Shown here piece by piece: positions 36,261 to 44,368 of a DNA stretch of 64,000 nucleotides. This stretch comes from an uncultured Candidatus Saccharibacteria bacterium. GTDB lineage: Bacteria; Patescibacteriota; Dojkabacteria; B142; OLB20. A program made the position numbers and the translations under genes. Numbering within the stretch: position 1 is the first letter of the stretch; the number at the start of each line of letters is the position of its first letter. The stretch lies in assembly GCA_964461915.1 (NCBI GenBank), contig CAYWVD010000001.1, positions 235,168 to 299,167 of the forward strand, written 5' to 3'. Under the pieces are notes generated by a model that did not search any database, was not told the DNA's origin, and saw only the letters and a list, made by a program, of their open reading frames with translations.

Positions 36261-37004
36261 ATTAGGGTCTTGTGAAGATTAGAGAGGATTTTGACTCAAC
36301 TCTTTCATCAACACTTTGTATATATTATCACTTCTGTGGTTAAAACACCACTCGGATTCTTTCAAATGTAAAATAAACTTATTTTTAGGCACTCCATTAA
36401 ATTGTGCTATTCTTCTTTTAGCATAACTCCAAAAACTTTCTATACCGTTTACATGATTTTTTCCACGAGCAAATTCATCCTTCGAATGATATATTCTGTA
36501 ATGCTTGTATCCATTTAAAACTAAACTATCATAGCTTGTCCAACCATCCGTATATATCGTACTATCCTCAAGTATTTTACCCTTAATTATCGGCATTAAC
36601 TGCTTCCTTTTACAATTCTTGACGATAACCGTATATACCTTACCATTACGCTTCAACAATCCAAATACAGGAACTTTACCTTTAGCTCCACGACCTCTTT
36701 TACCTCGTATTCTTTTAGCTCCAAAATATGATTCATCTGCTTCTATTTCACCTGATAACTTTTCTTCATTTTCTGTTAGTTGAAATATTCTTAATCTTAA
36801 TTTTTGATAGATATCTGAAATTGTTCTCCTTGAAATTCCGGTTAATTTACTGGTCTGAGTTGAGTCAAAATCCTCTGTAAAACACCTTAGAATCTGTCTA
36901 AATTTTGCCTCTGAAATCTTTGAACGGTTTGTGTACTTGTTTTTCATTGTCTTGCAAGGTATTTTACCACATTTACAACGTGCTATTCTTCACAAGACCC
37001 TAAT
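36261..37004 (-). mobile_element. IS1595-family insertion sequence (about 744 bp) with ~18-bp terminal inverted repeats; transposase CDS 36279..36947 on the minus strand
   Basis: Transposase has an N-terminal HTH/zinc region and a DDE_Tnp_IS1595-type core (TDGWTSYD ... NHVNGIESFWSYAKRR). Left end ATTAGGGTCTTGTGAAGA at 36261-36278 is a perfect reverse complement of TCTTCACAAGACCCTAAT at 36987-37004. Confidence 0.75.
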
Positions 37005-37268: not shown

Positions 37269-38276
37269 ATGATAAATACTAAGTACAAACTAAGCCAAAA
37301 ACTCTTAGAAAATATCTCCTCTATTGAAAGACTCTACGGTCAATTAGAATCACAAGTAGTTCCGAAAGAATTACTTCTTAACCTAGAAGAACACAATCTT
37401 GTTAAATCATCCTTTTCTTCTAACAGTATAGAAGGTAACCCACTCTCTCAAGAAGAAGTTACTAATTTAATACTTGGAGGAAGAGTCCCGGCAAACAGAG
37501 ATGAAAAAGAAGTAAAGAACTACTTTAATATCCTAAAACAGATAGGGAAAGAATATGATACTTTGAATATAGATACCATACTTACTATCCACAAACAACT
37601 TTTGCAAGGAGTTGAGAATCAAATAGGTGGTGAGATTAGAAATAGTAAGGTTGTTGTAGGCAATCCTGCTCAGGATGGAAATATTGTTATCAAACATGAA
37701 CCACCAAAACATACCAAGGAAGAAATTACAAAACTTCTAGAGGAGTTAATAGAATGGACAAATATATCTGAGGAATTACCCATACTAAGAGCAGGAATAT
37801 ACCATCATGAGTTTGTATATATTCATCCTTTTGTAGATGGCAATGGTAGGACTTGCAGATTAACTACTACACTCCTTTTGAATAAGTTAGGATACAAGAT
37901 AAATAAGTATTTTATACTTGATGATTACTATGATATAGATAGAATACAATATTCTGACTCCTTACATTCTGCTGATAGTGGTGATAAGACAGAATGGTTA
38001 GAGTATTTTACAGATGGTGTTAAATATTCTTTACAATCTGCATTAGCTAAGATAGAGGAAGGACTAAAGAACATCTCTTTTGATATGCGACCTACAAACA
38101 GAGAGAAAGATGTTTTGGAATTAATAAAGAAGTACAAAGAGATTACTTCTTCTGATGTTGCAAAGGATCTTGATGTGTCTAGGCAACAGGCTTTTAATCT
38201 TTTAGATGGTTTAGTTTCAAAGGGTTATTTAGAAAAACAGGGTAGTACTAAAAATAGTTTTTATACCTTAAGGTAG
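37269..38276 (+). CDS. fic: Fic/DOC family protein (AMPylation-type Fic motif) with N-terminal inhibitory-helix motif and C-terminal winged-helix-like domain
   Basis: Canonical Fic motif HPFVDGNGRTCR. N-terminal SNSIEGN fits the (S/T)xxxE(G/N) inhibitory motif. Confidence 0.85.
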   Translation: MINTKYKLSQKLLENISSIERLYGQLESQVVPKELLLNLEEHNLVKSSFSSNSIEGNPLSQEEVTNLILGGRVPANRDEKEVKNYFNILKQIGKEYDTLNIDTILTIHKQLLQGVENQIGGEIRNSKVVVGNPAQDGNIVIKHEPPKHTKEEITKLLEELIEWTNISEELPILRAGIYHHEFVYIHPFVDGNGRTCRLTTTLLLNKLGYKINKYFILDDYYDIDRIQYSDSLHSADSGDKTEWLEYFTDGVKYSLQSALAKIEEGLKNISFDMRPTNREKDVLELIKKYKEITSSDVAKDLDVSRQQAFNLLDGLVSKGYLEKQGSTKNSFYTLR

Positions 38277-38325: not shown

Positions 38326-39531
38326 TTTATACCAACCACAATATTTATACACGAACATCTCTTAAAAGCATATCTCTCGTCTAGAAAAAACAAACGAAAT
38401 ACCATTAATGCACTAAAATTTGAAATTAACTTAGAACAAAATCTCTCTAATCTACAAAACGAGATATTACTTCACACCTATAAACCATCTAGATCAATAT
38501 GTTTTGCTGTAACATATCCAAAAATTAGAGAAATATTTGCTGCAGATTTTAAAGACAGAATTGTACATCACTTACTAGTATCATATTTAGAACCATATTT
38601 TGAAAAAAGATTTATCTACTCATCTTTTGCCTGTAGAAAAGAAAAGGGAACTCTTTATGCAACTACGTATATACAGAAATGTTTAAGAAAAGTAACTAAA
38701 AACTCTACTAAAAAAGCCTACTATGGACAGTTTGATATTAAAAGCTTCTTTACAAGTATAGATGGGAAAATTTTAGAAGAGATCTTAATTAGTAATATAC
38801 AAAAAGGGTTTCATGGTAGTTTACAAAATGAATTAATATGGTTAACAAAAGTAATACTAGAAAACAATCCCACTCAAAACTATACAGTAAGAGGAGATAT
38901 TAATTTACTCAAACAAGTACCCTCTCATAAGTCTCTTTTTAATGTTTCTAAAAACAAAGGTCTACCGATAGGGAATTTAACATCGCAGTTTTTTGCCAAT
39001 ATATATCTAAACGAATTAGACCAGTATGTAAAAAGAGAATTAAAAATTTCCTACTATACTAGATATGTAGATGATATGGTTGTACTCTCTGATAACCTTG
39101 ATGATGTGTATATATGGAGAGAACAGATAGATACATTTTTAAAGAAAAAACTTAAACTTACTCTACACCCTAAAAAAGATAAATATGGCTCTGTATACTC
39201 TGGAATAGACTTTCTAGGGTATGTAATTAAGCCTAGATATACTCTCTCAAGAAAAAGGGTCGTAGGTAATCTAAAAAACAAACTAAAACTTTTTAATCAA
39301 GGTCTTTTACTAATATCACAAAATCAAAAACAGATTACCCTACCTCTCCATACACCCCCTTCGAAAGAGGAAATTTCTAAAATGTTAGCTATGATTAATT
39401 CTTACTATGGTCATTTTAGACATGTTAACTGTTTTAATTTAAGAAAGGATATATATGAGAATCACTTTGGTTGTTTAAAAGAATACTTAGAGCCTGTAGA
39501 ACAGTATTCATATTTTAAATTAATAAAATAA
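38326..39531 (+). CDS. Diversity-generating retroelement reverse transcriptase; the frame is open from 38326 but has no ATG/GTG/TTG before the RT domain (the ORF track shows only the 39076 ATG fragment)
   Basis: Frame-1 translation gives RT motifs DRIVHHLL, YGQFDIKSFFTSIDGKILEEIL, GLPIGNLTSQFFANIYLNELD (the DGR-specific IGxxxSQ instead of QGxxxSP), YTRYVDDMVV (YxDD), and the thumb/X-like motif INSYYGHFRH. It sits next to the Avd-like gene and the TR. Confidence 0.8.
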   Translation, partial: FIPTTIFIHEHLLKAYLSSRKNKRNTINALKFEINLEQNLSNLQNEILLHTYKPSRSICFAVTYPKIREIFAADFKDRIVHHLLVSYLEPYFEKRFIYSSFACRKEKGTLYATTYIQKCLRKVTKNSTKKAYYGQFDIKSFFTSIDGKILEEILISNIQKGFHGSLQNELIWLTKVILENNPTQNYTVRGDINLLKQVPSHKSLFNVSKNKGLPIGNLTSQFFANIYLNELDQYVKRELKISYYTRYVDDMVVLSDNLDDVYIWREQIDTFLKKKLKLTLHPKKDKYGSVYSGIDFLGYVIKPRYTLSRKRVVGNLKNKLKLFNQGLLLISQNQKQITLPLHTPPSKEEISKMLAMINSYYGHFRHVNCFNLRKDIYENHFGCLKEYLEPVEQYSYFKLIK

Positions 39532-39536
39532 TATAT

Positions 39537-39896
39537 ATGGGTAGTACAAACAATTTGCCTTTGTACAGGAGTGTGTACAAACTTTTAATATATCTTTACT
39601 CTTTAATTAGTAATTTCAAGAAAGAGTATAAATATACATTGGGTCAATCGATAACGGATTGTGCTTGGGTTGTATTAGATAGTGTAATTATTGCTAATAC
39701 CCTACCTAATTTAAAAAAGAAAGAGTATATATTAAAAGCTAGTAATCATTTTGATATGCTTAAGACTCGTATTAGGGTAGCACATGAATTAAAACTAATA
39801 GATAACAGAAGATATACTTTCATTGTTAATCAGTTTGAAGATATAGGTAAGATGTTGAATGGTTGGTATAGATGGAGTAGTAAAGCCCAAAGCTAA
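39537..39896 (+). CDS. avd: Avd-like DGR accessory protein (four-helix-bundle family)
   Basis: 119 aa, predicted helical. The C-terminal IVNQFEDIGKMLNGW matches the conserved ending of the four-helix-bundle/Avd family. Lies between the RT and the TR. Confidence 0.6.
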   Translation: MGSTNNLPLYRSVYKLLIYLYSLISNFKKEYKYTLGQSITDCAWVVLDSVIIANTLPNLKKKEYILKASNHFDMLKTRIRVAHELKLIDNRRYTFIVNQFEDIGKMLNGWYRWSSKAQS

Positions 39897-39899
39897 GTA

Positions 39900-40020
39900 C
39901 CGGGATACACAACGAACTCCGTTGTTTGTATTTGTCTTATTGTTGTTGTTGGTATTTCCATTGTTTAGGTTTACGTTCCATGCGTTTGTTGAATTGTTGG
40001 AGACCTCCGAGCTAGACCAA
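39900..40020 (-). repeat. DGR template repeat (TR), 121 bp, adenine-bearing sense strand is the minus strand
   Basis: 121-bp near-identical copy of 40310-40430. All 23 mismatches are T in the TR (plus strand), which is A on the minus strand. The TR in target frame encodes 12 AAC/AAT codons. Confidence 0.9.
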
Positions 40021-40236
40021 CGCTAACATTTTTCTACTAACTTGTTTACCACTGTAAAACTGATTAATATTTCAACTAAAAAGTTTAACTGTATTTAAAT
40101 ACCTATTAGGTGTAGTAGAACGGACTTAAATATTTGGGCTTTCTCTACTATCTATTGCCTACAGTGAGGTTAAATAGTAGACTCCATGCACTAAGATATT
40201 ACAATTCTAATTAGAAAATATCAAGTATCAAGAGAT

Positions 40237-40267
40237 TAAAAAACAACCCCTCCACTTTGTGGAGGGG
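40237..40267 (-). terminator. Rho-independent terminator downstream of the DGR target gene (minus strand)
   Basis: Perfect 9-bp stem CCCCTCCAC/GTGGAGGGG with a 3-nt loop at 40247-40267, followed on the minus strand by TTGTTTTTT. Confidence 0.5.
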
Positions 40268-40303
40268 TAAATTAAAAATTACTAAATTACTAAATTCTGG
40301 TTT

Positions 40304-41587
40304 TTAGTCCCGGGATACACAACGAACTCCGTTGTAAGTATTCGTCTTAGCGCTGTAGCTGGTACCGCCAAAGTTTAGGTAGACGCGCCATGCGTAAGCC
40401 GAATAGTAGGAGACCTCCGAGCTAGACCAATAGAGAGTATCTGTAACAAATGCTGCTGCAGATTCCTCATCTATACCCGCCTGGTTATATATCCCATCTA
40501 TATATGCTTGCATCAATTCTTTTTGAGAAGGTAAATACCAATCTGTTCTTCCTGCAAAATCTAATGTCGCACAGTAGTTTATTGCTAAACCGCAATCAGA
40601 ATCTAAACCATCATATGAACTTCTAGGTATTGAAGTAAAGTAATCACATGAAGCCATAGTAAAAATATTTGACATAGTACCTTGGTCTGCAGACCAATAT
40701 ACTCCAGTTCTCTCATCTCTCCATGCTATATCCTCTCCTACTGACATATTACTCCACTCTGACTCTTCTCCTTGATAGTCATCAGTTAATGTCCCTCCCC
40801 ATCCAAGATAGTCACCTCCAGCATAATCATCATATGTACTGTATTGCATATTTGTAAAATCTATAGGTGTTGGAGGTGTATATGTACCTGTTAGAAGAGT
40901 ACCTGAGTCAGAGTAAAACTTCTTTCCACTAATTACCTCATCTACTCTTGCATCTCCCAAAAATGACCAAGTACCTGTTAGTAATGTTCCAGAATCAGAA
41001 TAGAACTTCTTACCACTCATTACATCTGTAACTTGTGCATCACCTAAATATGATACTACTGGAGGAGTATATGTCCCTGTCTTTAATGTACCTGAATTAG
41101 AGTAAAATGTCTTACCTGCTAGTACATCACTAGTACTTGCATTTCCTCTGTATGTTACTGTAGGTACAGTAGGTAGTTTAAGAGTACCTGCTAAAAGTTC
41201 ATCATCCTCTGAGTAAAACAGTTTCCCCTCTAATACATCCTCTGCAGATGCATCACCTAAAAATTCAAACTCTTCAGGAACATATGTCCCAGTTTGTAAA
41301 TCTCTAGAATTGTTGTAAAAAGTTTTACCCTCTAATACATCACTCGTAGTAACAGTACCACTAGGAATCCAATTAGAAGCCTCTTGTACCTTTTCAACCA
41401 TCGAATCTAAATCAACATCAGAAAGTTCTTGTGTATATCCTAATTCTACTAACTTACCATATATACCCCTAACATCTTCCTCTAATTGAGATACATCAAC
41501 TTCTTTACTTGGTTTGAAAAAGAGAAACATTATTACTGCTGTAATAACGACACCTAGTAGAAATGAAAAAATATGTTTTTTATTCAT
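40304..41587 (-). CDS. DGR target (variable) protein: N-terminal signal anchor, five ~22-aa tandem repeats (DVLxGKxFYSxSGTLxTGTY), C-terminal DUF1566/C-type-lectin-like domain carrying the VR
   Basis: N-terminal TM (FSFLLGVVITAVIMFLFF). The repeats are VLEGKTFYNNSRDLQTGTYVP, VLEGKLFYSEDDELLAGTLKLPT, VLAGKTFYSNSGTLKTGTYTPP, VMSGKKFYSDSGTLLTGTWSF and VISGKKFYSDSGTLLTGTYTPP. The C-terminus TDWYLPSQKEL ... YWSSSEV ... AWRVYLNFGG ... GVRCVSRD fits the DUF1566/CLec pattern. Confidence 0.85.
   Translation of the reverse strand: MNKKHIFSFLLGVVITAVIMFLFFKPSKEVDVSQLEEDVRGIYGKLVELGYTQELSDVDLDSMVEKVQEASNWIPSGTVTTSDVLEGKTFYNNSRDLQTGTYVPEEFEFLGDASAEDVLEGKLFYSEDDELLAGTLKLPTVPTVTYRGNASTSDVLAGKTFYSNSGTLKTGTYTPPVVSYLGDAQVTDVMSGKKFYSDSGTLLTGTWSFLGDARVDEVISGKKFYSDSGTLLTGTYTPPTPIDFTNMQYSTYDDYAGGDYLGWGGTLTDDYQGEESEWSNMSVGEDIAWRDERTGVYWSADQGTMSNIFTMASCDYFTSIPRSSYDGLDSDCGLAINYCATLDFAGRTDWYLPSQKELMQAYIDGIYNQAGIDEESAAAFVTDTLYWSSSEVSYYSAYAWRVYLNFGGTSYSAKTNTYNGVRCVSRD
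40310..40430 (-). repeat. DGR variable repeat (VR), the last ~40 codons of the target gene
   Basis: See TR. The VR codons at TR-Asn positions now read Y, T, A, S, Y, S, G, F, Y, R, Y, A, Y, Y and so on. The identical 3' flank (coding sense) contains the hairpin ACAACG-GAGTT-CGTTGT. Confidence 0.9.
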
Positions 41588-41689: not shown

Positions 41690-42424
41690 GGGTCTAGACT
41701 AGTTTAGAGAGGATTTTTTCTAAACTCTGAAAGAAGTATATCATAAATATTTTCATTTCTCAAATTCCATCTGAACTCTGACTCTTTTAAATGAAGATGA
41801 AACATTTTATCATTTAATCCATTAAATTTTGCTAACCTTCTTTTAGTATAACTCCAAAACGATTCTATCCCATTAATGTGTGTCTTACCACGAGCAAATT
41901 CATCATCACTATGATACACACGATAATGGTCATATCCGTTAAGAATTAATCCATCATAACTTTTCCATCCGTCTGAATATATTGTAGAACCTTCTAGTAC
42001 TTTACCTTGGATTATCGGCATCAAATGCTCTCTTTTACAATTCTTAACGATGTTTACATAAACCTTACCATCCTGTTTAAGAATACCAAATACAGGAGTT
42101 TTTCCCGCTGCTCCACGTCCTCGTTTACCTCTTACACGCCTTGCTCCAAAGTATGACTCATCTACCTCAAACTCTCCTAACTCTGGTGTATGAGCAACAC
42201 TCATCTGAGCTATACGCACTCTGAAAAGATAGTAAAGTCTGTTTACTGTATTACGATTAACTCTAGAATATTTTGATGCTTTTGTTGCGGTTTCATCTTC
42301 GGCAAAATACTTTAAAATTTCCCTAAATTTTCTCTCCGAAATATGTGCTTTATTTAAATACTTATTTCTTATTGTCATAGACTTAATTATACGAGTTTTT
42401 ACTCTATTAAACTAGTCTAGACCC
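41690..42424 (-). mobile_element. Second, distinct IS1595-family insertion sequence (about 735 bp) with 17-bp terminal inverted repeats; transposase CDS 41704..42378 on the minus strand
   Basis: Transposase is a paralog of the first (roughly 60% identical by eye; same motifs SDGWKSYD, THINGIESFWSYTKRR). Left end GGGTCTAGACTAGTTTA at 41690-41706 is a perfect reverse complement of TAAACTAGTCTAGACCC at 42408-42424. Confidence 0.75.
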
Positions 42425-42708: not shown

Positions 42709-43401
42709 TCACTCTTCATTACTTTTACCCCAATTGCATTTTTGACATAGTGTTTGTAAATTTTCCAGACTTGTTTTACCTCCTTTTGAAAAAGGTTTTA
42801 TATGGTCAATGTGTAAAACAGTTCCATGATGAGTTGCTGGGCTTTTTCCACAATAGACACAGCAGAAATTATCGCGTTGCAAAACTTTGAGTCTTAATTT
42901 TAGTGGAATATCACGTTTTAATTTTGAATCTTTCGTGTTGATAGGCGTATTTGGAACCTCAGATTTTTGCTTTGTTTCTTCAACAACAGATTCCCCGGTT
43001 TTATATTCGAGAAATTTCATGCAAGCGTTTGTCCAGCCATTAAATCTTGCTTTGTATGTTGAGTATGAATATTTGGGCTTAACTAAATCCCATTCGGTTT
43101 TTGATGGCCTGTGGCCTAATTTTTTCCAAACTTTATCTAATTCCTCAAACAGCTCTTTCTCGGATATAAAACTTCGATCAGTTTCTCGTGGTTTAAGTTC
43201 TACGCCTATTGAATCTAGCGCCTTTTGCCAAGTTCCAAATACGCCGAGTACTTTTGTACCCTTACAAAGTTTTGCAACTTTATCAAATTCGTGCCGAGTG
43301 AATTTTGTATAATCAAAAAGCCCAGCAACTCTTTTAAGTTCTTTTATGACATCCTCTTTGGATATAGTGTCTATTCTTTTTCTGGAAAATTTATAACTCA
43401 T
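42709..43401 (-). CDS. HNH endonuclease-domain protein
   Basis: C-terminal HNH motif CCVYCGKSPATHHGTVLHIDHIKPFSKGGKTSLENLQTLCQKCN. Confidence 0.6.
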   Translation of the reverse strand: MSYKFSRKRIDTISKEDVIKELKRVAGLFDYTKFTRHEFDKVAKLCKGTKVLGVFGTWQKALDSIGVELKPRETDRSFISEKELFEELDKVWKKLGHRPSKTEWDLVKPKYSYSTYKARFNGWTNACMKFLEYKTGESVVEETKQKSEVPNTPINTKDSKLKRDIPLKLRLKVLQRDNFCCVYCGKSPATHHGTVLHIDHIKPFSKGGKTSLENLQTLCQKCNWGKSNEE

Positions 43402-43555: not shown

Positions 43556-44368
43556 ATGAAAAGCGAACTGGACAGAACCATACGAGAACTAAAAATACGC
43601 AATTACAGCCCCAAGACTATAAAAAGTTATACAAATGGGCTCAGTAAATATTTCAGCTACAAAAGAAAAAACATTGATAAGCTAGATACAAACAACATTA
43701 AAGACTTCCTACTCTACTGCAAAGATAAAAACATTTCAGCCAAAACGAGAAATCAGTATCTTAATGCTATCAAATACTATTATTACAATATCATCAATGT
43801 AACAGATAAAATTGATGTAAAATCCGCTAGACGAACTAAAAGCCTTCCAGTTATCCTGAGTAGATCCGAGATTAAAGCTTTGATCGAAGCCACAAACAAC
43901 CAAAAACATAAAATGTTGCTTGCAATAGCGTATGGAGCTGGGTTACGAGTTAGTGAAGTTGTAAACCTTAAAGTGAAAGATGTAAATCTTGAGGACCTAA
44001 CACTGCATATCAAACATGCAAAGGGAGACAAAGACAGAATAACCATTCTTTCAGATAGTATAAAAGACAAGTTAAACAAGATCATTAGTACTAAGGAAGC
44101 AAATGAATATGTTCTTTCTAGCGAAAGAGGTGGGAAACTCACAACCCGTACAGCTCAAAAGATTTTCTCAAATGCACTTAAAAAGACTGGTGCCAAAAAG
44201 GATGCTTCTTTTCATTCCCTCAGACACAGCTTTGCTACTCACTTGCTGGAAAACGGCACAGATATTCGTTATGTACAAGAATTATTAGGCCATGTAAACA
44301 TCAGAACTACTCAAAGATACACCCAAGTCACAAATCCTCGCTTACGAAATATAAAGAGTCCACTTTAA
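43556..44368 (+). CDS. int: Tyrosine site-specific recombinase/integrase
   Basis: Catalytic R..H..R..Y context (FHSLRHSFATHLL ... LGHVNIRTTQRY). N-terminal SAM-like domain. Sits adjacent to the tRNA cluster. Confidence 0.8.
   Translation: MKSELDRTIRELKIRNYSPKTIKSYTNGLSKYFSYKRKNIDKLDTNNIKDFLLYCKDKNISAKTRNQYLNAIKYYYYNIINVTDKIDVKSARRTKSLPVILSRSEIKALIEATNNQKHKMLLAIAYGAGLRVSEVVNLKVKDVNLEDLTLHIKHAKGDKDRITILSDSIKDKLNKIISTKEANEYVLSSERGGKLTTRTAQKIFSNALKKTGAKKDASFHSLRHSFATHLLENGTDIRYVQELLGHVNIRTTQRYTQVTNPRLRNIKSPL

Follow-up and report, generated by a model that had tools for sequence, protein, structure and literature searches.

An inverted diversity-generating retroelement with a conserved leader RNA in a Dojkabacteria-like bacterium of the Patescibacteria

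Overview of the locus

The locus described here is very probably a complete and active diversity-generating retroelement (DGR) in the chromosome of a Dojkabacteria-like bacterium of the Patescibacteria, working by the steps outlined below. It was studied within a stretch of 64,000 nt, hereafter the window, and its parts are listed in Table 1. The template repeat (TR) and the target gene are antisense to the reverse transcriptase (RT) gene and avd, a layout known as "inverted" that has already been described. Apart from its predicted minus-strand template RNA with a conserved leader, the element belongs to a well-known kind and is ordinary for it. CPR bacteria have many DGRs whose targets are DUF1566 proteins, and as a DGR it therefore adds little.

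According to the proposed mechanism, a minus-strand RNA would begin near position 40189, as the promoter and the covariation suggest, and would run through a folded leader of about 170 nt into the 121-nt TR and then into segment a'. This segment, 8 nt past the TR, would pair back with the leader and close the TR into a loop. The RT and Avd, whose genes are convergent to this unit on the plus strand, would act on the TR RNA in trans, presumably as a complex. By analogy with the family, they would copy the TR into cDNA and misincorporate opposite adenines. The cDNA would then replace the variable repeat (VR), which forms the last 41 codons of the gene for a Lcl_C/DUF1566 surface protein; the outcome is seen as VR differences among strains.

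Table 1. Features of the locus, in window coordinates.
Feature	Position	Strand	Description
DGR reverse transcriptase gene	38326..39531	+	Open frame, 401 codons; RVT_1 E = 2.6e-17; LPIGNLTSQFFANIYL and YVDD motifs
avd (accessory variability determinant)	39537..39896	+	119 aa; PF22296 bAvd E = 8.4e-17
Strand a'	39882..39891	-	Minus-sense UUUGGGCUUU; 8 nt 3' of TR; antisense within the last avd codons
TR	39900..40020	-	Adenine-rich strand is minus; 15 AAY codons; A-specific mismatches to VR
Structured leader RNA	40021..40189	-	Directly 5' of TR, about 170 nt; 5' end inferred from promoter
Leader P2	40119-40113/40039-40033	-	Predicted helix
Leader P3	40089-40077/40066-40054	-	Predicted helix
Leader small hairpin	40111-40101	-	Predicted
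Leader strand a	40142-40133	-	Pairs with strand a'
Leader P1	40181-40176/40149-40144	-	Encloses inner hairpin 40173-40167/40160-40152
Promoter-like site for TR RNA	40196..40224	-	TTGATA, 17 nt, TAATAT; consensus match only
GC-rich hairpin and T-run	40236..40268	-	10-bp stem, 3-nt loop, tail TTGTTTTTT; 41 nt 3' of VR
VR	40310..40430	-	Last 41 codons of target gene
Target gene	40304..41587	-	427 aa; N-terminal transmembrane helix; repeats; C-terminal Lcl_C/DUF1566 domain carrying VR

The repeat pair and the target protein

The initial annotation had placed a TR at 39900-40020 and a VR at 40310-40430, each of 121 bp, with 23 of 23 mismatches at template adenines. The recomputed alignment returned the same coordinates and length, as an ungapped direct repeat with an offset of 410 and 23 mismatches. 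In every case the first copy has T on the plus strand, which the second replaces by A (10), C (9), or G (4). Since the minus strand carries the template sense, these positions are adenines of the template, where 23 of the 48 A residues are substituted and none of the 73 other residues is (Fisher p = 9.3e-12). The chance that all 23 mismatches fall on that base is (48/121)^23 = 6e-10. No mismatch at a non-adenine position occurs within the 121 nt; a single one appears when the repeat is extended by 4 nt (39896-39899), just outside the end of homology, and this edge is read as the IMH/IMH* boundary. The unchanged flank on the target 3' side measures 26 nt (39900-39925), as had been annotated, and terminates in CCCGG, beyond which TR and VR diverge. 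The flank on the 5' side measures 22 nt (39999-40020) instead of the "about 23" given before. A scan of the 64-kb window, based on the non-A positions of the TR only, found no further VR-like copies.

In the frame of the target, the TR contains 15 AAY codons, of which 12 are altered in the VR and three still encode Asn. The altered codons read Tyr (six), Ser (two), Ala, Gly, Phe, and Arg. The annotated number of altered Asn codons and these outcomes were correct, except that Thr had been counted among the outcomes; the codon concerned is a Thr codon of the TR (ACA) that becomes Ala. Substitutions at codon positions 1, 2, and 3 number 11, 6, and 6. The AAY codon design allows 15 residues to vary with no stop codon being created.

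DGR VRs typically sit at the C-terminal end of a C-type-lectin-like domain. Residues 290-424 of the target protein match PF07603 (Lcl_C/DUF1566) with E = 7e-16, and the VR lies inside this domain. The protein also carries four to five repeats of about 30 aa (GDA..DVL.GK.FYS.SG.L.TGT), and its homologues go by the name [quoted passage not shown]. A search of PDB sequences with the VR-bearing domain gave only chance matches to antibodies. Because a transmembrane anchor and a lectin-type domain are predicted, the protein's most likely role is to bind a surface ligand of a host or partner cell. Downstream of the VR, the stem of the GC-rich hairpin is preserved by a compensatory change in the related loci L003 and L004 (CCCATCCAC/GTGGATGGG). 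This hairpin is the predicted intrinsic terminator of the target gene, and it may possibly serve as the DGR target-site hairpin as well.

Reverse transcriptase, Avd, and the inverted layout

DGR reverse transcriptases are recognized by a motif 4 of the form [I/L/V]GxxxSQ and by YxDD. The RT of this locus contains IGNLTSQ and YVDD and matches Pfam RVT_1. Its closest PDB match is 8ub7, the Bordetella phage bRT (E = 5.4e-33), while RTs of group II introns and retrons match at 1e-8. The reading frame is uninterrupted, with 82-86% identity in L003-L006 and L010-L012. No ATG, GTG, or TTG occurs in the frame before 39076 (codon 251). An ATA at 38341-38343 is conserved, and the start codon is uncertain. 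At least eight subclade genomes have retained the frame unbroken and conserved; none of them has an ATG, and each keeps ATA or ATT at that site. Translation of the RT would require an ATA/ATT start or some other means.

Avd is found in most DGRs. Here it scores 62 bits against PF22296 (cut-off 40); it also matches NCBIfam DivGenRetAVD with E = 6.5e-20, but its 71.4 bits are under the curated cut-off of 80. The TR begins 4 nt past the avd stop codon. The gene order is target-TR-(avd)-(RT); RT and avd lie on the plus strand, adjoining the TR, and TR, VR, and target lie on the minus strand. The DGR interpretation given in the initial annotation is supported by the RT and Avd beside the repeats, by the location of the VR in a target gene, and by VR variants of strains at TR-adenine positions. 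That annotation was silent on the opposite strand of RT and avd, on the RT frame without a canonical start codon, and on the structured RNA around the TR.

The inverted layout is common to about 30 related loci with RT identities of 47-100%, and the T-biased (template-A) mismatch pattern recurs in dozens of related loci. The inverted loci of Patescibacteria occur in two forms, with avd accompanying either the RT or the TR, and they are interleaved with canonical relatives that have the same leader RNA. The related loci and the target homologues are labelled Dojkabacteria, Saccharibacteria, or Patescibacteria. A composite transposon carrying the DGR was considered and rejected: the two IS1595-type transposases on either side share only 61% identity, and in relatives the neighbours are different, GroEL for example.

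The leader RNA and the template strand

The leader RNA is conserved more strongly than any other stretch of the locus, with 95-100% identity compared with 73-90% for the RT gene. In the covariance-model alignment, all 32 pairs show compensatory changes and 95.6% of cells are paired, figures that are inflated because this alignment was fitted to the structure. The covariation score is 0.81 against 0.29 for shuffled alignments, and an independent MAFFT alignment (A3) shows compensation in 27 of the 32 pairs. Read on the minus strand, the pairs include 112 G.U and 9 A.C, and this imbalance indicates that the leader folds only as minus-strand RNA. In 40 loci the covariance model placed the leader immediately 5' of the TR (E < 1e-5), without exception on the adenine strand of the TR. 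Inverted loci have it on the minus strand and canonical loci on the RT strand; it follows the A strand of the TR and not the RT. Rfam, including the RT-1 to RT-19 motifs of Weinberg 2017, gave no match at E <= 1 across 39400-40500 on both strands. No description of this RNA was found in the papers covered by the search. A published survey would have missed a 5' leader RNA because only 40 nt upstream of the TRs were examined.

Strand a' is complementary to 40133-40142 (strand a), so that a segment of the leader is paired to the stretch of 10-16 nt immediately 3' of the TR. Of 36 distinct related loci, 30 have an equivalent pairing at this place, with p < 0.05 against shuffles in each case, and many different sequences form it. 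Shuffling was used as the control in place of cross-locus ranking, which is uninformative because relatives share helix sequences.

Inverted loci carry a -35/-10 pair about 15 nt ahead of P1, often near consensus (TTGACA-17/18-TATCAT/TATGAT), although promoter-like matches in this AT-rich locus are not enriched over shuffles. The conserved promoter and the strand-specific RNA covariation suggest that the template RNA is transcribed from the minus strand. A recurrent complementarity, (G)AUACA/UGUGU(C), was also observed between the leader and the 3' end of the TR; both sides are constrained, the TR side being coding, and a primer:template-like pairing there is no more than a lead.

Together with these data, it can be tentatively hypothesized, at somewhat below even chances, that a large clade of Patescibacteria DGRs, canonical and inverted and with RT identity down to about 44%, uses a template RNA unlike the Bordetella paradigm. 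A folded, presumably protein-binding domain of about 170 nt (P1, P2, P3) would stand 5' of the TR, whose 3' end would be clamped 8 nt away by the leader duplex, and in inverted loci the RNA would be transcribed independently, as a unit of its own from a separate promoter. If this is true, the priming nucleotide and the sites grasped by RT and Avd come from upstream of the template, as a mirror-image solution to cis-primed reverse transcription. Such an upstream domain could broaden the single-model view of DGR reverse transcription priming, and the leader architecture could aid the design of compact DGR-based diversification tools. In this family of loci, RT and avd can flip relative to the TR while the covarying RNA stays on the adenine strand of the TR. 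The attachment of the leader to that strand identifies the template strand without experiments.

Variation among strains

At least five different VRs occur in strains near-identical to this one from other metagenomes, with changes almost only at TR adenines. The target proteins of these strains are 95-96% identical, and the differences lie almost only within the VR. Two of the loci, L090 and L091, differ from the window at 4 and 8 positions in 1157 nt outside the VR (0.3-0.7%), and at 21-23 TR-A positions inside the 121-nt VR. The TR is nearly invariant, with 0-3 differences in L002, L003, L004, L091, and L092; the TR of L090 has a polymorphism at its 5' end. Because VRs differ between near-identical strains while TRs are conserved, the DGR is evidently active, as judged from these relatives. 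Completely different VRs beside so few outside differences point to recent homing in this subclade. Unrelated VRs in near-identical strains of several metagenomes make a clear-cut natural case of active diversification of a surface protein in a bacterium of episymbiotic type.

For the exact genome, a single VR sequence is on record, and locus L001 is identical to the window. No other contigs encoding the exact target protein are on record. A look-up with Avd retrieved a single short contig from Logan, with the same sequence as the window, and no within-sample VR variants for the exact strain.

Alternative explanations

Three other readings of the locus were weighed. The locus could be a decayed relic, in which the repeats record past homing and the RT is no longer made for want of a start codon. 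The lack of a canonical start before codon 251 and the single VR sequence of the exact genome (L001 being identical to the window) are in keeping with this. However, the 401-codon frame is intact in at least eight subclade genomes, all without ATG and with ATA/ATT kept, strains with only 4 and 8 differences in 1157 nt have completely different VRs, which indicates recent homing, and conservation within the locus is highest in the TR and leader RNA. A relic is thus improbable. An ordinary duplicated gene fragment, with random divergence and a T bias arising by chance, would account for the existence of a repeat and nothing more. It is refuted by A-specific mismatches (23 of 23 on one of four bases, p about 1e-11) and by the recurrence of the same pattern in dozens of related loci, and RT and Avd are adjacent; its probability is close to nil.

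The remaining reading concerns the strand. If one plus-strand transcript spanned RT, avd, and the TR, mutagenesis would act at template uridines, which would be a new base specificity. The plus-strand order of avd, TR, and a conserved spacer of about 170 nt indeed resembles the DGR RNA of BPP-1 (avd-TR-Sp), and the TR starts only 4 nt past the avd stop codon. Against this, the conserved spacer folds only as minus strand (G.U 112, A.C 9), and in canonical single-strand relatives the leader is found on the adenine strand, 5' of the TR, tracking the TR and not the RT. In inverted loci, moreover, the -35/-10 pair stands ahead of the leader on the minus strand, and plus-strand T patterns near RT genes have already been interpreted as inverted DGRs (PMC3521204). 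On the strand evidence of the leader RNA, this reading was rejected as highly improbable.

Comparison with known DGRs

The prototype DGR, that of BPP-1 (mtd-avd-TR-brt), shares many features with the active chromosomal DGR proposed here. Both have a bRT-like RT, Avd, the AAY codon design, a TR and VR of about 120-134 nt with adenine-only changes, and a VR at the 3' end of the target. Both also have an unchanged IMH-like 3' segment with a GC hairpin downstream of the VR, and a long-range duplex bracketing the TR, a predicted one here that is comparable to the avd:Sp "cPRT Stop" duplex (bioRxiv 10.1101/2023.10.23.563531). In contrast to BPP-1, which is phage-borne and diversifies the tail fibre protein Mtd, this element is chromosomal and its target is a membrane-anchored Lcl_C/DUF1566 protein. 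Its RT and avd are opposite in strand to the TR and target, and its TR RNA has its own putative promoter. The folded Sp of BPP-1 lies 3' of the TR, whereas the RNA domain here (P1, P2, P3) lies 5' of it, and the bracketing duplex has its upstream strand 113-122 nt ahead of the TR instead of about 10 nt. Because a' starts 8 nt past the TR, there is no room 3' of the TR for an Sp-like primer or an Avd-binding stem.

The element resembles DGRs of CPR/Patescibacteria, as described by Wu et al. 2018 (PMC5758913) and Roux et al. 2021 (PMC8144416, DGR clade 2), in host group, cellular and chromosomal location, Avd, and non-standard gene order. In the CPR set of Wu et al. 2018, architecture B3, TR-(avd)-RT, is reported to make up 90% (PMC5758913); unlike this B3 majority, RT and avd here are antisense to the TR. 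The existence of inverted cases is also noted by MyDGR and by Wu et al. (PMC5758913). Schillinger et al. 2012 defined Group 4 "inverted" DGRs in Shewanella, Vibrio, and Photobacterium, in which the RT is opposite to TR, VR, and target (PMC3521204). Their signature on the RT strand is a set of mismatches specific to T, from which it follows that the TR RNA is transcribed separately, and the gammaproteobacterial cases were described as a rare event of single origin (PMC3521204). The present element has the same division, with the RT on one strand and, on the other, TR, VR, and target, a membership by layout only. Unlike that single-origin group of Gammaproteobacteria, the loci reported here number about 30 in Patescibacteria and take two forms. 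All relatives retrieved belong to Patescibacteria or DPANN, which indicates that, as far as tested, the RT is not close to the gammaproteobacterial inverted group.

Repeat pair and VR variation

The element in the window is a real, complete and active diversity-generating retroelement (DGR). It belongs to a well-known kind, frequent in its bacterial group; judged from sequence comparison, only the leader RNA and its arrangement, permuted relative to the prototype, may be new. The template repeat (TR) and variable repeat (VR) form an ungapped direct repeat of 121 nt (39900-40020 and 40310-40430, offset 410). The initial annotation placed all 23 mismatches at template adenines, and realignment bore this out: each lies at a plus-strand T of the first copy (T>A 10, T>C 9, T>G 4). 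Of the 48 A in the minus-strand TR, 23 are changed in the VR, against none of its 73 other bases (Fisher p = 9.3e-12). The VR makes up the final 41 codons of the target gene. Read in the target frame, the TR holds 15 AAY codons; twelve are altered, as the annotation had said despite minor miscounts in its description, to Tyr (6), Ser (2), Ala, Gly, Phe and Arg, while three stay Asn. Its unchanged flank of 26 nt (39900-39925) stood, but the other end measures 22 nt (39999-40020) instead of about 23. A scan of the 64-kb window disregarding template adenines found no further TR/VR copy.

VR variants, to which the annotation had pointed, were compared across samples rather than within one, and near-identical strains carried independent VRs. 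The TRs of four subclade genomes are 0-3 nt apart, and their VRs show 23-30 differences from the TR, nearly all at template adenines. A target protein search gave five cluster representatives, 95-96% identical; on alignment, they have 0-3 differences in the first ~385 residues and 10-17 in the last 35. Two further target proteins are the same outside the VR and different within it. Among related loci, L090 has 4 differences in 1157 nt outside the VR, and its VR departs from its own TR at 21 A, by one true non-A change (AAG>AAT) and by a 5'-end polymorphism. L091 has 8 differences in 1157 nt and 22/22 changes at A; L092, whose gene is 3 nt longer and was not compared outside the VR, has 23/24 at A. 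On sequence comparison, VR differences in almost identical strains are independent homing events.

Polymorphism within the initial ~20 nt of the repeat, where positions 7-10 read TAGC or GTCG, was seen in L090 (1832-1956 against its VR) and in the VRs of L003 and L004. The polymorphism lies in the TR in some cases and in the VR in others, which is compatible with a variable 5' limit of cDNA transfer. Two relatives use one TR for two VRs, in two different minus-strand targets, one on either side of the RT-avd pair.

Genes and genomic surroundings

The reverse transcriptase (RT) carries the motifs LPIGNLTSQFFANIYL and YVDD. Its best solved-structure match is the Bordetella phage bRT (8ub7, E = 5e-33), with group II intron and retron RTs at ~1e-8. 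No ATG, GTG or TTG occurs in the first 250 codons of its frame (38326-39076), and a canonical start is also absent in all subclade members at least 82% identical (L002, L003, L005, L006, L010-L012). An ATA (38341-38343) is kept in the subclade nine codons ahead of the conserved AYLSCRK; L006 has ATT instead and a different upstream frame, and the more distant relatives L007, L008 and L013 have ATG at this position. This pattern suggests that the RT may initiate at an Ile codon, perhaps as a means of keeping RT levels low. The TR starts 4 nt past the stop codon of avd (accessory variability determinant). In the target, tandem repeats, over which no Pfam family was found (40884-41341), separate the membrane anchor from the lectin-like domain.

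The DGR is surrounded by a Fic-HTH gene, two IS1595-type transposases (one on each side), an HNH endonuclease with homing-endonuclease repeats and a tyrosine recombinase. A recent composite transposon carrying the DGR was ruled out because the flanking transposases are only 61% identical. Neighbours differ in relatives, with GroEL beside the target in L003 and L004. Related loci come from MAGs called Dojkabacteria, Saccharibacteria or Patescibacteria. The window DNA is ~31% G+C; its cumulative GC skew falls near-steadily throughout, and the minus strand carries the majority of genes. Should this be the leading strand, the target would be co-oriented with replication, an orientation reported to be favourable for DGR homing (PMC12875486).

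Coordinates of the DGR and its surroundings (window positions unless a related locus is named)
Feature	Position	Strand	Details
RT	38326-39531	+	401-codon open frame; Pfam RVT_1, E = 2.6e-17
avd	39537-39896	+	PF22296, E = 8e-17; NCBIfam DivGenRetAVD, E = 6.5e-20, 71.4 bits (below curated cut-off of 80)
Strand a'	39891-39882	-	antisense, in last codons of avd
Gap, TR to a'			8 nt
TR in template RNA	40020-39900	-
Linker, leader helices to TR			12 nt
P2	40119-40113 / 40039-40033	-
P3	40089-40077 / 40066-40054	-
Small leader hairpin	40111-40101	-
Strand a	40142-40133	-	AAAGCCCAAA
P1	40181-40176 / 40149-40144	-	inner hairpin 40173-40167 / 40160-40152
Promoter-like -35/-10 pair	40224-40196	-	TTGATA-17-TAATAT
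Target	40304-41587	-	427 aa; N-terminal hydrophobic helix; C-terminal Lcl_C/DUF1566 domain (E = 7e-16) ending in VR
Target tandem repeats	40884-41341	-	four to five units, ~87-111 nt / ~30 aa, GDA..DVL.GK.FYS.SG.L.TGT
Mobile/selfish-gene patch	36279-36947, 41704-42378, 37269-38276, 42709-43401, 43556-44368	-, -, +, -, +
Two-VR locus L007	4040-4180, 7007-7147
Two-VR locus L025	2255-2383, 4981-5116

Inverted layout and template strand

The target and the TR adenines lie on the minus strand, opposite to RT and avd. Script-based classification of loci retrieved with RT gave 13 with RT+ avd+ and the TR and target on the opposite strand, as in the window, and 15 with RT+ avd- and the TR and target on the opposite strand; the remainder are canonical (target-TR-avd-RT, target-avd-TR-RT or RT-TR-avd). 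The inverted layout is thus no accident of this genome. It is an already known DGR variant, found earlier precisely as T-specific hits (Schillinger et al. 2012, PMC3521204), also noted by Wu et al. and termed rare by MyDGR.

The most conserved stretch of the locus (39800-40190) runs from the avd 3' end across the TR and through a ~170-nt non-coding spacer, with 95-100% identity to relatives whose RT genes are 73-90% identical in DNA. Inverted loci have homologous spacers (nhmmer E 1e-57 to 1e-8), and a common fold of 18 of them, aligned with MAFFT, has compensatory changes in 27 of 32 pairs. A covariance model built from this alignment detected the leader RNA at E < 1e-5 in 40 loci; in every one it adjoins the TR on the 5' side and shares its adenine strand. 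The strand concerned is minus for inverted loci and plus (the RT strand) for canonical loci such as L046, L062, L048, L045, L031 and L075, so the RNA occurs in both kinds of DGR in the Patescibacteria/DPANN clade. In the model alignment, 95.6% of cells are paired, all 32 pairs show double changes and the covariation score is 0.81 (0.29 for shuffles, at most 0.17 for slid partners), figures tilted towards structure because the alignment was fitted to the model. No Rfam family matched the leader RNA.

The alternative that the TR is transcribed together with RT and avd on the plus strand, and mutagenized at uridines, was considered and rejected on the leader strand evidence. G.U pairs outnumber A.C pairs by 112 to 9, an excess expected only when the leader RNA is read in the adenine sense. 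Inverted loci also carry a -35/-10 pair ~15 nt ahead of the first helix, often near consensus (TTGACA-17/18-TATCAT or TATGAT). The leader position on the adenine strand, the covariation, the G.U excess and the promoter-like pair lead to the conclusion that the window's template RNA would be a separate minus-strand transcript.

The unchanged TR 3' end forms a hairpin (ACAACG-loop-CGTTGT; 39909-39925) with a weak, 6-bp stem. On the plus strand, where the T-rich TR complement follows, it scores as a terminator-like site and might terminate the converging RT-avd transcript within the TR.

Leader duplex and comparison with the Bordetella phage DGR

Strand a of the leader (AAAGCCCAAA) is complementary to a' (39891-39882), and this long-range duplex is predicted to close the TR into a loop. 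Relatives have equivalent pairings at the same position with quite different sequences (GCACUUAUAUC/GGUAUAAGUGC, AGGGCAUAAAGUUU/AAACUUUAUGCUCU and GAGCUAAAAUC/GAUUUUAGCUC). Pairing was better than in shuffled controls (p < 0.05) in 30 of 36 distinct loci, although these tests are not independent because the loci are related. The antisense position of a' in the last avd codons accounts for the added conservation at the 3' end of this gene.

In the Bordetella phage DGR, the TR is bracketed by a duplex of avd nt 369-379, ~10 nt upstream, with nt 59-70 of the spacer Sp; Sp, located 3' of the TR, contains the stems that bind Avd and bRT, together with the primer strand (Sp 47-56, with A56 as the priming site) (bioRxiv 10.1101/2023.10.23.563531). 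A TR-bracketing duplex is present in the window too, but its upstream strand lies 113-122 nt before the TR and its downstream strand only 8 nt after it. All conserved structure in the window is upstream of the TR, in contrast to Sp. Among the related loci compared, no conserved sequence was found beyond a'; that position is occupied by the antisense of avd in one layout and by the beginning of avd in another. The survey of other DGRs in that study (bioRxiv 10.1101/2023.10.23.563531) took only 40 nt before and 100 nt after each TR, and so would have missed the upstream-leader arrangement. Positions within the RNA suggest possible roles: P2, lying 12 nt ahead of the TR, might act as a polymerase stop, the a/a' duplex might place the initiation site, and the leader may supply the primer. 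The leader also shows a recurrent complementarity to the TR 3' end, (G)AUACA/UGUGU(C), as a lead only.
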